Assembly: GCF_003334765.1 (NCBI RefSeq)
Contig: NZ_QOWT01000008.1
Length of the DNA: 64,000 nt
Direction: 5' to 3' (one strand)
Source: Escherichia coli
GTDB taxonomy: Bacteria > Pseudomonadota > Gammaproteobacteria > Enterobacterales > Enterobacteriaceae
Below, piece by piece: positions 4,979-60,129 of this stretch. The first letter of the stretch is position 1. Each line of letters starts with the position of its first letter. The position numbers and the translations under genes are program-made. The notes beneath the pieces were generated by a model. The model saw only the letters and a program-made list of their open reading frames with translations, was not told the origin of the DNA and ran no database searches.

Positions 4979-5002
4979 TTTGACCCTGCACTATGAATGA
5001 AC

Positions 5003-5032
5003 AAAACCCTCTGTTACTACAGAGGGTTTTTT
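5003..5032. terminator. Bidirectional rho-independent terminator between convergent guaA and yfgI
   Basis: AAAACCCTCTGT-tact-ACAGAGGGTTTTTT: 8-bp stem flanked by an A-run on one side and a T-run on the other. Confidence 0.75.
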
Positions 5033-5070
5033 ATCTTCAAGAATTATAGGATTGAAGTTACTAACATCGA

Positions 5071-5610
5071 TTAATTAAACCAGCTGTCCGATTTGTTCTC
5101 TTCTGCTTTGCCCACGCTTTTCATCAGATCGCGACCGCCTTCAGTCATATTTCTGTTGGCGTCAGCTTCAGATTGCACCACATCGGTTTGCGCAGCTTTG
5201 TGCTTCAGTTCCTGATCGATAAATTCGTTTTCTCGCTTAACGCGGGCTTCTTCTTTCGCCAGCGCCAGTTTTTGTTTCTGAATCTCTAAGCTGCGTAGCT
5301 CATCTTCATAACTTTGATCGCGTTTTTTGTCCGCAGAGGCTTCGGCGTCCAGTTTATCCTGACGAGCTTTCTTATTTGCCGCTGCCGTTGCCGCTCTTTT
5401 GTTAGCGGCGGCCTGGGCATTTGCGCGACGTTGCTTCTCTTGCTGGATTTCCCTGTTGCGCTCCGCGACCCATTCGTCATGCTGCCTTTGCTCTTCATTT
5501 TTACCTTGCTGTTCCGCTTCTGCGACAGCAGAGAGTTGATCCTGCAATGATGAGGCGATAGCCGGATAGCTTAAGGAGGCTAAGATGGCGCAAAGAAAAA
5601 CTTTCTTCAT
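5071..5610 (-). CDS. yfgI: Secreted low-complexity Lys/Glu/Ala/Gln-rich protein YfgI
   Basis: 179-aa ORF with signal peptide MKKVFLCAILASLSYPAIA followed by a charged coiled-coil-like region. Confidence 0.85.
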   Translation of the reverse strand: MKKVFLCAILASLSYPAIASSLQDQLSAVAEAEQQGKNEEQRQHDEWVAERNREIQQEKQRRANAQAAANKRAATAAANKKARQDKLDAEASADKKRDQSYEDELRSLEIQKQKLALAKEEARVKRENEFIDQELKHKAAQTDVVQSEADANRNMTEGGRDLMKSVGKAEENKSDSWFN

Positions 5611-5625
5611 GACTCCTCCTGATTA

Positions 5626-6144
5626 TTAGCTCTTTTCAGGACATTTGGTATTTGGCTGAATACGCGTTTCGTTATACGTCGTGGTAATAACAACGGCTAA
5701 ACCTGTCGTAAACTGGCACTCTTTACCCACCTGGGTAGAGGTATACACTTTGGTGCCTTCCTTATAGGTTAAAGAAACACCTTCCACTAAGGTTTTATCA
5801 TTCACCATAGAACCCGCTGCCGCGCCTACAGCTCCGCCGCCAACTGCACCTGCCGTCGTTCCGGAATTGCTGCCAGACCCGACGTTGTGGCCGATAACAC
5901 CGCCAGCGACTGCGCCAATAAGCGCGCCGAAGGCTTGTGCGTTCCGTTTATTTTGGGAGTTGTCTACGGCAACTTTTGCGGGAAGAATGGAAATAATATT
6001 AACGGTTTTAGTTTCTTGTTTGGTATTCAGTTGATCGGTTTGATAAACATCGGCAGCATGATCGTCAGCATTTGACTGGCATCCTGCCAGAGTGAATGAC
6101 GCTAACATTGCCACAGGCAGAAGACATTTTTTAAATTTCATCAC
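5626..6144 (-). CDS. yfgH: Outer-membrane lipoprotein with glycine-zipper domain, YfgH
   Basis: 172-aa ORF; lipobox LAGC at the end of the signal peptide; Gly-rich GxxxG repeat segment. Confidence 0.85.
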   Translation of the reverse strand: MMKFKKCLLPVAMLASFTLAGCQSNADDHAADVYQTDQLNTKQETKTVNIISILPAKVAVDNSQNKRNAQAFGALIGAVAGGVIGHNVGSGSNSGTTAGAVGGGAVGAAAGSMVNDKTLVEGVSLTYKEGTKVYTSTQVGKECQFTTGLAVVITTTYNETRIQPNTKCPEKS

Positions 6145-6454
6145 TATTCCTTGTTATACACATTACGAAAAATAAGACATTTAAGATCATCAAAAGAGGA
6201 AAGTAAATGTATTGCGTATAAAGGGATAGATTAAATTTATTAAAATTCACGCAGGGAATAATTTATAAAAATATATCATCACAACATATATATTAATTTT
6301 ATATTTATTTCGCAGCCAAACAGGATAAACATCAGTCAGGATAAAGACGTAAAATTTAAGATGAAAGAATATCTGCCGCTTTGATAATCCCAAACAGCAA
6401 AAGCATCCGACAGCGAAGTGCCGTTATGTTCTGTGAAAGTGGAGAAGGTAACCG

Positions 6455-6646
6455 CTAACGTTGTACCGGTGATTCGACGGAGAGTGTGGATTGCTGAGCT
6501 TCTTTTTTGCTCTGATGGTGCTGCCAGGCACCGACGGACGAGTAGATAAAACGGCCAAAGAAGAAGATAAAGCTGATGAGCAGTACGATACGGGTCATGC
6601 GACTGTTAAATCGGTGTCGTTTTCGCATACTGGTTGCCTGACTCAC
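6455..6646 (-). CDS. yfgG: Small single-pass membrane protein YfgG (63 aa)
   Basis: 63-aa ORF MSQATSMRKRHRFNSRMTRIVLLISFIFFFG... with one hydrophobic helix. Confidence 0.7.
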   Translation of the reverse strand: MSQATSMRKRHRFNSRMTRIVLLISFIFFFGRFIYSSVGAWQHHQSKKEAQQSTLSVESPVQR

Positions 6647-6856
6647 AAAAGGTTCCTTGAAGTATGTCCCACGCTGTGGACGGTACTTACATTAAGGCAC
6701 AACAGGACAAAATGGTCAATTCTTCGTTATGTAAAAAAGCGTCAGTGGATACATATTTTAATGTTATGGAAGTTAATTTAATTATTTACAATGATGATGT
6801 AATAATGATGAATTAACATGATAAACGTAATAATTCATTAATCAGGGTTATTTTGT

Positions 6857-6870
6857 TTGATATATATCAA
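6857..6870 (+). promoter_or_regulatory. FNR-type box TTGATATATATCAA upstream of pdeF
   Basis: Perfect match to TTGAT-N4-ATCAA, about 130 bp upstream of the pdeF ATG in an AT-rich divergent region. Confidence 0.6.
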
Positions 6871-6997
6871 TTGGTACTTTCATATGACACTTAGAATCAA
6901 TGCTCTCTATAGTGATGAATAATCATCATTCGAAGTCAGGTGGGATGCCTGTCTGAATACACCTCCTTCAGGATGTGGGGGATTCTGCTGAGCATCT

Positions 6998-9241
6998 ATG
7001 AAACTGAATGCAACTTATATAAAAATACGTGATAAATGGTGGGGGCTTCCGCTGTTCCTGCCTTCTTTAATCTTGCCCATTTTCGCCCACATTAATACTT
7101 TCGCGCATATTTCTTCCGGTGAGGTTTTTCTCTTTTATCTGCCTCTGGCACTGATGATCAGCATGATGATGTTTTTCAGCTGGGCGGCATTGCCAGGGAT
7201 CGCCTTAGGGATTTTTGTCCGCAAATATGCAGAGCTGGGTTTTTACGAAACGCTATCATTAACGGCTAATTTTATTATCATTATCATTCTCTGTTGGGGC
7301 GGTTACAGGGTCTTTACTCCCCGGCGTAACAACGTTTCACATGGTGATACCCGTTTAATTTCCCAGCGTATATTCTGGCAGATTGTGTTTCCTGCAACGC
7401 TGTTTCTGATACTTTTCCAGTTTGCTGCATTTGTAGGATTACTGGCGAGCAGAGAAAATCTGGTCGGTGTCATGCCTTTTAACCTCGGGACTTTAATCAA
7501 TTATCAGGCCTTACTGGTGGGTAATCTGATCGGTGTCCCGCTGTGCTACTTCATCATTCGGGTAGTGCGAAATCCATTTTATTTACGTAGCTATTATTCG
7601 CAATTAAAACAGCAGGTTGATGCCAAAGTCACCAAAAAAGAGTTCGCGCTCTGGCTACTGGCATTAGGTGCTTTATTGTTGCTGTTATGCATGCCGTTAA
7701 ATGAAAAAAGCACAATTTTTAGCACCAATTATACCTTGTCATTATTGCTGCCCCTGATGATGTGGGGAGCGATGCGCTATGGTTATAAGCTGATTTCGCT
7801 GCTCTGGGCGGTCGTGTTGATGATCAGCATCCACAGCTATCAAAATTACATTCCCATTTATCCTGGCTATACCACGCAGCTGACCATAACCTCCTCCAGT
7901 TATCTGGTATTCTCTTTTATTGTCAATTATATGGCTGTACTGGCAACCCGTCAGAGAGCGGTAGTCAGACGCATTCAGCGGCTTGCGTATGTGGACCCGG
8001 TGGTTCATCTGCCAAATGTTCGCGCCCTGAATCGCGCGTTGCGTGATGCCCCCTGGTCTGCGCTTTGTTATTTACGCATCCCTGGCATGGAAATGCTGGT
8101 TAAGAACTATGGCATCATGCTGCGGATTCAATACAAGCAAAAACTTTCTCACTGGCTGTCACCCTTGCTGGAACCGGGTGAAGATGTTTATCAGCTTTCG
8201 GGTAACGATCTCGCGCTGCGACTGAATACAGAATCGCACCAGGAGCGCATTACCGCACTGGATAGCCATCTCAAGCAATTTCGTTTCTTTTGGGATGGCA
8301 TGCCGATGCAACCGCAGATTGGCGTCAGTTACTGCTATGTGCGCTCGCCAGTGAATCATATCTACCTGCTGCTGGGAGAGCTAAATACGGTCGCCGAACT
8401 TTCCATCGTGACCAACGCCCCGGAAAATATGCAGCGTCGCGGGGCAATGTATTTGCAACGCGAATTGAAAGATAAAGTCGCGATGATGAATCGACTACAG
8501 CAGGCGCTGGAACACAACCATTTTTTCCTGATGGCCCAGCCGATTACCGGTATGCGTGGTGATGTTTACCATGAAATTCTTCTGCGCATGAAAGGTGAGA
8601 ATGATGAACTGATCAGCCCCGATAGCTTCTTGCCGGTCGCGCACGAATTTGGTTTATCGTCGAGTATCGACATGTGGGTCATTGAGCATACGCTGCAATT
8701 TATGGCTGAAAACAGAGCGAAGATGCCCGCTCACCGTTTTGCTATTAATCTGTCTCCAACCTCGGTATGTCAGGCTCGTTTTCCTGTTGAAGTCAGTCAG
8801 TTGCTGGCTAAATATCAGATTGAAGCGTGGCAACTTATTTTTGAAGTCACCGAAAGTAATGCTCTGACCAATGTTAAGCAGGCGCAAATCACCTTGCAGC
8901 ATCTTCAGGAATTAGGCTGCCAGATTGCGATTGATGATTTCGGCACCGGCTACGCCAGCTATGCGCGGCTTAAAAATGTGAATGCCGATCTGCTTAAAAT
9001 TGACGGCAGTTTTATCCGCAATATTGTGTCAAATAGTCTGGATTATCAGATAGTGGCATCGATTTGCCACCTGGCGCGAATGAAGAAAATGCTGGTAGTG
9101 GCAGAGTACGTTGAAAACGAAGAGATCCGCGAGGCGGTGCTCTCTTTGGGGATCGATTATATGCAGGGTTATCTTATTGGTAAGCCGCAGCCGTTAATTG
9201 ATACGCTGAATGAAATCGAACCCATTCGCGAAAGTGCCTGA
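6998..9241 (+). CDS. pdeF: Cyclic-di-GMP phosphodiesterase PdeF (YfgF): MASE1 membrane domain, degenerate GGDEF, EAL domain
   Basis: 747-aa ORF; multiple N-terminal TM helices; C-terminal EAL domain. Confidence 0.9.
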   Translation: MKLNATYIKIRDKWWGLPLFLPSLILPIFAHINTFAHISSGEVFLFYLPLALMISMMMFFSWAALPGIALGIFVRKYAELGFYETLSLTANFIIIIILCWGGYRVFTPRRNNVSHGDTRLISQRIFWQIVFPATLFLILFQFAAFVGLLASRENLVGVMPFNLGTLINYQALLVGNLIGVPLCYFIIRVVRNPFYLRSYYSQLKQQVDAKVTKKEFALWLLALGALLLLLCMPLNEKSTIFSTNYTLSLLLPLMMWGAMRYGYKLISLLWAVVLMISIHSYQNYIPIYPGYTTQLTITSSSYLVFSFIVNYMAVLATRQRAVVRRIQRLAYVDPVVHLPNVRALNRALRDAPWSALCYLRIPGMEMLVKNYGIMLRIQYKQKLSHWLSPLLEPGEDVYQLSGNDLALRLNTESHQERITALDSHLKQFRFFWDGMPMQPQIGVSYCYVRSPVNHIYLLLGELNTVAELSIVTNAPENMQRRGAMYLQRELKDKVAMMNRLQQALEHNHFFLMAQPITGMRGDVYHEILLRMKGENDELISPDSFLPVAHEFGLSSSIDMWVIEHTLQFMAENRAKMPAHRFAINLSPTSVCQARFPVEVSQLLAKYQIEAWQLIFEVTESNALTNVKQAQITLQHLQELGCQIAIDDFGTGYASYARLKNVNADLLKIDGSFIRNIVSNSLDYQIVASICHLARMKKMLVVAEYVENEEIREAVLSLGIDYMQGYLIGKPQPLIDTLNEIEPIRESA

Positions 9242-9246
9242 ATAAT

Positions 9247-9273
9247 GCGGGCCGACATTTCTCGTCGGCCCGC
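9247..9273. terminator. GC-rich hairpin between convergent pdeF and ppx
   Basis: GCGGGCCGAC-atttctc-GTCGGCCCGC, 10-bp stem; flanking A/T runs are weak, so terminator strength is uncertain. Confidence 0.45.
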
Positions 9274-9279
9274 AAAGTA

Positions 9280-12892
<3,613 letters not shown>

Positions 12893-44332: not shown

Positions 44333-44707
<375 letters not shown>

Positions 44708-45069
44708 TTATGAGAATAAATACTCATTTAAGGGTGAAAACATTTTGCCTGCAAATGATTATCAGGAAATATAACATTATCGAAGTATTCAAATTAACAA
44801 CTATTAAATAATATTAAACATTTTTAACGTAAACATTAAGAATATTCATCTTGTTATCTGTCTGTATTTTAACCAGAATTAAATCAGTATTAGATGCCGT
44901 ATGAATATCTCGAAATGTTGCTGTGTATCACATACAAATCATCACCGCAGGACCATAGTATTTACATAAGATTTGTCCCCCGGAGGTAGTCATCGCAGCA
45001 ATCGAGTAAATTAGCTTCACCACGGTATATTGTTTCCGTAGAATACCCATAATTATAAGAGAGGTTGTT

Positions 45070-59854: not shown

Positions 59855-59880
59855 GCTTACCCTGAATATTCAGGGTAAGC
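59855..59880. other. Perfect 26-bp palindrome GCTTACCCTGAAT|ATTCAGGGTAAGC after maeB
   Basis: Read directly from sequence 17 nt after the maeB stop; no downstream U-tract; lies at the distal edge of the eut upstream region. Confidence 0.5.
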
Positions 59881-60129
59881 AGTTTAGCTGCAATATATTA
59901 GTAAAGCTTATTACTGAGTTTGCGAATAATAAAAAAAAGCAGTCTATATAATATCTCGATATTATTTTATTTATATTCATGCGTTGCATATGAAAGTTTA
60001 TGCACCACAGCGAATATCTCTCCATTCTTAGTGATCTACCTCACCTTTTAAACGCGCTTGCCGAATTTTGTTATTTACTCTGACGAAAAATTGTCACGAT
60101 ACACGAAAGTTTTTCACAGGCGGCGACTC

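Follow-up and report, generated by a model that had tools for sequence, protein, structure and literature searches.

At the nirB promoter of Escherichia coli, a class II FNR site lies at -41.5, and upstream sites for NarL/NarP, IHF and Fis modulate activation. Class II promoters that depend on CRP or FNR place the RNA polymerase alpha C-terminal domains (alpha-CTD) upstream of the activator, and AT-rich DNA favours the contact. The PmrA/BasR box has the consensus YTTAAK-N5-YTTAAK, and H-NS has a high-affinity nucleation motif (TCGATAAATT-like) that is not obligatory for its binding. FNR sites can also be masked by H-NS and StpA, as at hlyE, yaiV and feaR (Myers 2013, PMC3688515).

The DNA considered here separates the divergent genes yfgG and pdeF (yfgF) of E. 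coli. It lies in a window of 64 kb, which is the whole stretch analysed, and all positions are those of the window unless a genome record is named. A first-pass annotation of the window had pointed to an AT-rich tract with ATGATG repeats and an imperfect inverted repeat just upstream of an FNR box, and had proposed that nucleoid proteins or a second regulator bind there.

Layout of the yfgG/pdeF spacer

Gene order around the tract (guaA - yfgI - yfgH - yfgG <> pdeF(yfgF) - ppx) is that of E. coli K-12, and the divergent spacer measures 351 nt. Positions 6400-7100 are identical to MG1655 (a 15-kb overlap holds 3 mismatches), so that published MG1655 maps can be transferred to the window. For a window position w, U00096.3 = 2635936 - w and U00096.2 = 2633958 - w; the latter offset was checked against the start-codon distances in Aquino 2017. 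The features of the spacer and its flanks are:

6455-6646, minus strand: yfgG
6691-6719, minus strand: yfgG promoter, with -10 CTTAAT (ATTAAG on the plus strand, 6691-6696) and -35 TTGACC (GGTCAA, 6714-6719)
6706-6911: AT island (100-nt windows with GC <= 0.25), holding the tract, the FNR box and the pdeF core promoter
6721-6790: conserved block 5' of the yfgG promoter, with ATGTAAAA (6729-6736), CGTCAG (6740-6745), ATA-N9-TAT (6753-6767) and TATTTACA (6783-6790)
6791-6843, no strand: AT-rich tract singled out earlier, roughly -114 to -62 counted from the pdeF start and -108 to -160 from that of yfgG
6857-6870: FNR box TTGATATATATCAA, perfect consensus, centred at -41.5 (class II)
6892-6897, plus strand: pdeF -10 hexamer TAGAAT (TA.AAT in all taxa)
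6937-6997, plus strand: pdeF 5' untranslated block, CAGGTgGGATGCCTGyCT ... GAGCATCTATG, adjoining, outside the tract
6998-9241, plus strand: pdeF (yfgF)

The 53-nt string that had been singled out, ATGATGATGTAATAATGATGAATTAACATGATAAACGTAATAATTCATTAATC, is present once, at 6791-6843 within the span 6781-6850, and corresponds to U00096.3 2629093-2629145 in reversed order (6843-6791). The FNR box said to lie just downstream is indeed there: the 3' end of the tract stops 13 nt short of it, and the AT-rich stretch 6826-6856 abuts it. The pdeF promoter is given as class II with its FNR box at -41.5 in the passage of PMC3718329 that quotes Lacey 2010. A box so centred would put the pdeF transcription start at about 6905, so that the tract would run from -114 to -62. 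For yfgG, published mapping gives a start at 6683 and a sigma-70 ChIP-seq peak at 6679, and ChIP-seq of the sigma-S holoenzyme covers 2627100-2627399. The yfgG -10 and -35 elements are unchanged across genera, and alignments show that the conserved block 6721-6790 also carries ACAT..TTAATGTTAT.

Like nirB, pdeF has a class II FNR promoter with AT-rich DNA in the upstream 60-150 bp and modulation by a nucleoid-associated protein. Unlike nirB, it has in its tract no NarL heptamer pair and no IHF or Fis consensus above the level of shuffled sequence, and the evidence there is for H-NS, IHF and Fis giving no ChIP signal. The tract resembles UP elements and other alpha-CTD docking DNA in composition and position only (AT-rich, about -60 to -90). 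The masked FNR sites are like pdeF in that a good FNR box lies in an extended H-NS region, and yfgF itself appears in Tables S7, S9 and S11 of Myers 2013, where deletion of hns and stpA brings a rise in FNR signal and oxygen control (PMC3688515). Unlike them, the pdeF site is FNR-bound in the wild type, and is thus damped and not fully silent; Table S6 of the same study lists it without nucleoid-protein overlap (PMC3688515).

Base composition, repeats and folding

The tract is as AT-rich as had been claimed: its GC content is 0.21 over 53 nt, a value as low being reached at only 0.3% of positions in the 64-kb window. The 100 nt from 6750 have a GC content of 0.20, the lowest 0.14% of the window, and the island 6706-6911 is one of only four in the window by the 100-nt measure. 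The remaining three are at 6121-6372, 44706-44911 and 59874-60007; of these, 6121-6372 is the yfgG-yfgH spacer and holds a second Nac ChIP-seq peak, at 6253.

Both repeat features are also present. The ATGATG repeats start at 6791, 6794 and 6805, and the inverted repeat is as follows:

6803-6840: imperfect inverted repeat, 6803-6815 TAATGATGAATTA against 6828-6840 TAATAATTCATTA, arms complementary at 10/13 positions, core perfect at 8/8 (6808-6815 / 6831-6838), spacer 15 nt; chance-level and unconserved

Their standing as special features does not survive comparison with chance. They recur with p 0.13-0.85 in 500 dinucleotide-preserving shuffles, applied to the 70-nt span, to the 161-nt AT core and to the complete spacer. 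A perfect 8-nt inverted repeat arises in 13-29% of the 500 shuffles, a 10/13 arm pair in 51-85% and an 8-mer occurring twice in 44-89%, so that none exceeds chance. The strongest case among the repeats is AATGATGA, which occurs three times in the whole 351-nt spacer (shuffle p about 0.07). Folded as single-stranded DNA, the tract reaches -3.8 kcal/mol (z = -0.09), an energy equalled or bettered by 82 of 200 shuffles. Tandem Repeats Finder sees 1.9 copies of an 11-nt unit in the tract, with a score of 35 below the default threshold of 50.

On the strength of the shuffles, DNA folding and Tandem Repeats Finder, the idea that the repeats and their inverted partner form a real element was rejected. 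A tandem repeat or phase-variable microsatellite was rejected on the 1.9 copies and on the constant 53 nt in every Escherichia lineage examined; the full-length rows sampled for this DNA from 5416 E. coli genomes are all exactly of query length. A structured non-coding RNA was discarded as well, given the fold z of -0.09 and a search of 6300-7300 that returned no relevant Rfam family match at E <= 1. Two individual operator readings also fell away: the ArgR-type reading of TGAAT...ATTCA has a spacing of 19 nt instead of 4, and the Fur-box reading of AATAATGAT matches at 12/19, which is chance level. What is exceptional about the tract is its base composition; its repeats, inverted repeat and folding are ordinary, and both kinds of repeat follow from the low complexity of such AT-rich DNA.

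A separate palindrome, TGATGA-N4-TCATCA, lies at 6913-6928, about +9 to +24 of the pdeF transcript, and shares the word ATGATGA with the tract. It is found in all Escherichia lineages examined and is missing from the other genera.

Conservation across genera and within Escherichia

Orthologous spacers were compared from four other Escherichia lineages, Salmonella enterica, Citrobacter braakii and one further Enterobacteriaceae genome, together with six Kluyvera genomes, Enterobacter asburiae and two Phytobacter genomes. They were gathered by scanning genome contigs for a PdeF peptide pattern, and for Salmonella and Citrobacter by protein search and exact-sequence look-ups; the Salmonella enterica record, L083, was recognised by its protein P0009, 100% identical to one named as Salmonella, and L086, an error-prone metagenome copy of E. 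coli, was left out. Synteny and the FNR box are retained in all taxa compared (TTGAY-N4-ATCAA in 16/16). The alignments contain four conserved islands, namely the yfgG -10/-35, 6721-6790, the FNR box with the -10 hexamer, and 6937-6997, and the tract is not among them. Between E. coli and eight other taxa its mean identity is 0.50, where the random expectation at the same composition is 0.34; on the same measure the neighbouring block scores 0.69, the FNR box 0.79 and the 5' untranslated block 0.74. Identity of the tract is 0.51 in Salmonella and 72% in Citrobacter, and is near random in the five most distant taxa.

The repeats follow the same pattern. In Salmonella and Citrobacter the ATGATG motifs read TTAATAATA(A/G) or TTAATAATG, and neither the repeats nor the inverted repeat is retained in Salmonella, Citrobacter, Kluyvera, Enterobacter or Phytobacter. 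The arms of the inverted repeat fail to pair in every non-Escherichia genus aligned. Within Escherichia, the left arm is altered in E69, E1V33 and E. whittamii with the right arm unchanged. Repeats at chance level, unconserved and with uncompensated arm changes are not operator-like, and a palindromic operator of a dimeric regulator was rejected on these grounds and on the lack of any match above shuffles to the known regulator consensus sequences listed below.

Length and composition behave differently from sequence. The tract is 52-53 nt long in every taxon, and 142-143 bp separate the yfgG -35 from the FNR box in 16/16 taxa; elsewhere in the spacer, the region 6906-6936 varies from 24 to 41 nt across taxa and the distance from the FNR box to the 5' untranslated block from 79 to 96 bp. 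Every taxon likewise keeps the tract at a GC content of 0.19-0.38, in genomes of about 50-55% GC. From the alignments, spacer length and AT content are conserved across genera where the sequence is not, which is a mildly new point.

Within Escherichia the tract changes slowly, with 3-5 differences per 53 nt against 23-29% at flanking four-fold sites (binomial P 4e-5 to 3e-3). This is 3-5 times slower than local synonymous sites and holds for the whole spacer too. Selection for AT-richness that permits mainly the rarer A-T transversions would give slow change of this kind.

Several further differences among the taxa concern the flanks. Salmonella has an insertion of about 59 nt (L083, about 870-930) in the yfgG leader/promoter region, between 6683 and 6684, which occurs in no other taxon. 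The pdeF gene is unusually diverged among Escherichia, with four-fold-site identity of 0.54-0.61 (against L006, L007, L009 and L018); the corresponding values for yfgI, yfgH, yfgG and ppx are 0.65-0.90, and the spacer upstream of pdeF has diverged by 3-10% only. In three records pdeF is called as 2-3 separate genes, with a MASE1 part and an EAL part (Salmonella L083, 1201-3413; Citrobacter braakii L084, 948-3147; L085, 1201-3069). These split calls suggest frameshifted or truncated alleles, and the 442-residue form of the Salmonella product is found on more than 200 contigs. The 5' untranslated block 6937-6997 is nearly invariant in at least six genera, and in this it surpasses the core promoter. 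It is predicted to form a small hairpin, CAGGU/GCCUG, with no Rfam match; its bases never vary, so that there is no covariation to test.

Occupancy by H-NS, FNR, IHF and Fis

Of the nucleoid proteins whose published maps had been suggested as a check, H-NS is supported at this DNA, and IHF and Fis are not. In Table S3 of Myers 2013 (PMC3688515), both an anaerobic H-NS ChIP-chip region (2626274-2628408, window 5550-7684) and an aerobic one (2624400-2628963, window 4995-9558) are classed as 'extended'. Both contain the tract, at a resolution of about 2 kb that is too coarse for assignment to 53 nt. Genomic SELEX likewise marks the yfgF/yfgG spacer as binding the RpoD holoenzyme and H-NS. For IHF and Fis no signal is reported at either the tract or the FNR box: the IHF region closest by, 7446-7725, is within pdeF, and Table S6 has no Fis or IHF overlap at the FNR site (PMC3688515). 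Within the tract, the best match to the H-NS high-affinity motif is 7/10, a score reached by 93-99% of shuffles.

FNR occupancy at this promoter depends on the H-NS/StpA background. The yfgF FNR site is ChIP-positive with a PatSer score of 16.08 (Myers 2013, PMC3688515), and its ChIP-chip peak average increases significantly, from 0.35 in the wild type to 1.68 when hns and stpA are both deleted (PMC3688515). In the wild type yfgF is FNR-bound without an FNR-dependent change in expression, and it is oxygen-regulated solely in the hns stpA background (+O2/-O2 = 0.23; PMC3688515). The same study contains an internal discrepancy: Table S6 gives 'None' for overlap of the yfgF FNR site with Fis, IHF or H-NS (PMC3688515), which for H-NS contradicts its own Table S3, where the H-NS regions span the FNR box at 6857-6870.

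The AT island has been struck repeatedly by insertion sequences. IS1 follows about 6726 and 6796 in O15_8X and LR-64-1 (L003, L087), which lack the promoter and 5' end of pdeF, and IS5 is inserted at 6894, within the -10 hexamer, in a gallium-evolved MG1655 line. Coverage of 6740-6900 falls below 80% in 24 of 5416 genomes.

Specific regulators of the spacer

The idea of a second regulator holds in part. Regulators of the spacer exist (Nac, BasR and PgrR), and none of them is tied to the flagged repeats or inverted repeat. Fifteen regulator consensus sequences were scanned against shuffles; apart from the FNR box, the scan picked out nothing but a BasR-like repeat of marginal score. Fur, IHF, Fis, ArcA, NarL, CRP, FNR, OmpR, Lrp, CpxR, TyrR, NikR and Nac were at or below shuffle level within the tract. 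For OmpR, yfgF stands in an earlier ChIP-chip list that ChIP-seq did not reproduce, and PgrR genomic SELEX names the spacer as a whole.

As at LysR-type activation sites of Nac (ATA-N9-TAT), there is a Nac peak in the spacer and the divergent gene responds: the ChIP-seq peak covers 2627041-2627367 with its summit at 2627183 (window 6775), and Nac induction raises yfgG 138-fold (0 to 137 RPKM). Expression of yfgF is essentially unaffected (0.79-fold). The single perfect ATA-N9-TAT in 6700-6900 falls at 6753-6767, inside the conserved block and not in the tract, where the best Nac-type match is 5/6, seen in 96% of shuffles. Because the perfect motif and the summit are both in the conserved block and pdeF hardly responds, Nac belongs to the neighbouring block and yfgG. 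The summit lies 16 nt from the tract, and ChIP summits are imprecise, as the FNR ChIP call shows, with a centre (6812) about 50 nt off its box. At the homologous position, Kluyvera and one further Enterobacteriaceae genome (L013-L017, L019, L020) have a perfect 16-bp palindrome, AACATTAATTAATGTT. The E. coli sequence at 6751-6768 is ACATATTTTAATGTT, which includes the ATA-N9-TAT and lies 8-22 nt from the Nac summit at 6775.

For BasR, an electrophoretic mobility shift assay (EMSA) gave a shift with 2-16 micromolar protein and a 180-bp probe, and yfgF mRNA was 2.3-fold up in a basSR deletion mutant (Yu et al. 2025). The primers of Yu et al. 2025 place the probe at 6817-6996. It thus takes in the right half of the tract only and misses the left arm of the inverted repeat as well as the ATGATG repeats; 150 nt of it lie outside the tract. 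Within the probe there is one candidate site:

6826-6842, plus strand: candidate PmrA/BasR-like direct repeat cGTAAT-N5-aTTAAT, 10/12 matches, sharing positions with the right arm (6828-6840) of the inverted repeat

Neither half-site is a full match to the PmrA/BasR consensus. The direct repeat has a shuffle p of 0.02 in 76 nt and 0.06 in 201 nt, values uncorrected for 15 motifs. The pattern GTAAT-N6-TTAAT is retained in all Escherichia lineages and in Citrobacter, and the BasR-like repeat is missing from Salmonella. It is a weak lead, and the sole one for a sequence-specific site in the tract.

An open reading frame over the repeats

The ATGATG repeats coincide with the end of an annotated gene:

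6664-6816, plus strand: 50-codon open reading frame (ORF), hypothetical protein WP_000017552.1, called by PGAP in most E. coli genomes

The frame ends in NDDVIMMN*, and these last codons are the ATGATG repeats. It is annotated as a hypothetical protein in RefSeq genomes and is open in every Escherichia lineage examined, which would make the repeats the 3' end of a real gene for a 50-residue protein. That this is so is very improbable. The ORF is missing from the curated MG1655 record and its frame is broken after 9-37 codons in every other genus; its C-terminus differs in length and sequence, and its pN/pS of 0.42-1.34, calculated from very few changes, gives no clear purifying selection. It also runs across the conserved promoter of yfgG, which faces the other way, and its sequence has no promoter-like site upstream and no strong ribosome-binding site in view. 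The ORF is probably spurious, an annotation artefact.

What the tract is likely to do

On balance, we take the tract to be an AT-rich spacer between the divergent yfgG promoter and the class II FNR-dependent pdeF promoter, acting through its composition and length. Most likely it is neither a discrete repeat element nor a palindromic operator, and its exact sequence matters less than its composition and length. H-NS and StpA would form an extended filament over yfgH-yfgG-pdeF, with the tract as part of its AT island, and the filament would lower FNR occupancy and mute the anaerobic induction of pdeF. Published work, at about 2-kb resolution, shows that the DNA is occupied and that deletion of hns and stpA has an effect, and from it we infer that this tract helps to nucleate or carry the filament. 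The end of the tract nearest the promoter (about -62 to -90) would be the expected seat of the alpha C-terminal domains of RNA polymerase, and by analogy with other class II promoters alpha-CTD probably docks on the tract upstream of the FNR site.

A discrete site for a second regulator in the tract or its right half is a rival that we rate as unlikely. In its main form, BasR bound at 6826-6842 (about -79 to -63) would block alpha-CTD docking or FNR-dependent activation, in keeping with the shifted probe, the raised yfgF mRNA in the basSR deletion mutant and the pattern common to all Escherichia lineages and Citrobacter. Against this, the shift took micromolar protein on a probe that lies mostly outside the tract and in which no site was mapped, the motif statistics are uncorrected, and Salmonella lacks the repeat. 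In its other form a LysR-type regulator, Nac or PgrR, would reach in from the neighbouring block; the nearness of an imprecise Nac summit and the inclusion of the spacer in PgrR SELEX fit this, and the position of the perfect Nac motif outside the tract, the flat yfgF response and the chance-level match inside it do not. The slow evolution of the tract within Escherichia would suit either form. Together with the Citrobacter identity it could reflect at least one specific low-affinity site, which is the counterpoint to a tract acting by composition and length. The same BasR operator, blocking FNR-dependent activation, is also the weaker variant of a distinctly improbable reading in which the tract is a structural coupling element. 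Here the spacer would keep two promoters, that of yfgG with its Nac/sigma-S-linked block and the FNR-dependent one of pdeF, at a fixed helical phase to each other, and the 142-143 bp kept in at least six genera would let one H-NS bridge or anti-silencing event switch both genes.

It is quite unlikely that the tract is filler without a regulatory role of its own, made AT-rich by mutation bias and its promoter neighbourhood and constant in length because indels are scarce. The low identity to Salmonella and the near-random identity of the five most distant taxa would be expected of filler, as would the failure to find any motif, structure, repeat or RNA family above chance. Indels are nevertheless frequent elsewhere in the spacer (6906-6936, and the insertion of about 59 nt in Salmonella), and the tract varies by at most 1 nt. 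Its divergence within Escherichia is 3-5 times below that of neighbouring four-fold sites, its low GC content is held in genomes of intermediate GC, and deletion of hns and stpA alters FNR occupancy and yfgF regulation, all of which argue against filler. A cruciform or hairpin with a structural role is barely credible. The perfect 8-bp core across a 15-nt spacer invites it, but the arms are AT-only, imperfect and unconserved, the loop is long and the folding energy is that of shuffled DNA; shuffles, alignments and folding effectively refute it.

The tract, which we regard above all as a composition-dependent spacer, is DNA of a familiar kind, and most regulators of its promoter are already in the literature. 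The repeats that first drew attention to it carry no signal and have little significance beyond bookkeeping. The pdeF product is the anaerobic c-di-GMP phosphodiesterase of E. coli, and FNR is bound at its promoter in the wild type with activation muted by H-NS. As the most AT-rich DNA beside the pdeF FNR site, the tract would be the obvious piece for dissecting how H-NS damps a class II promoter.
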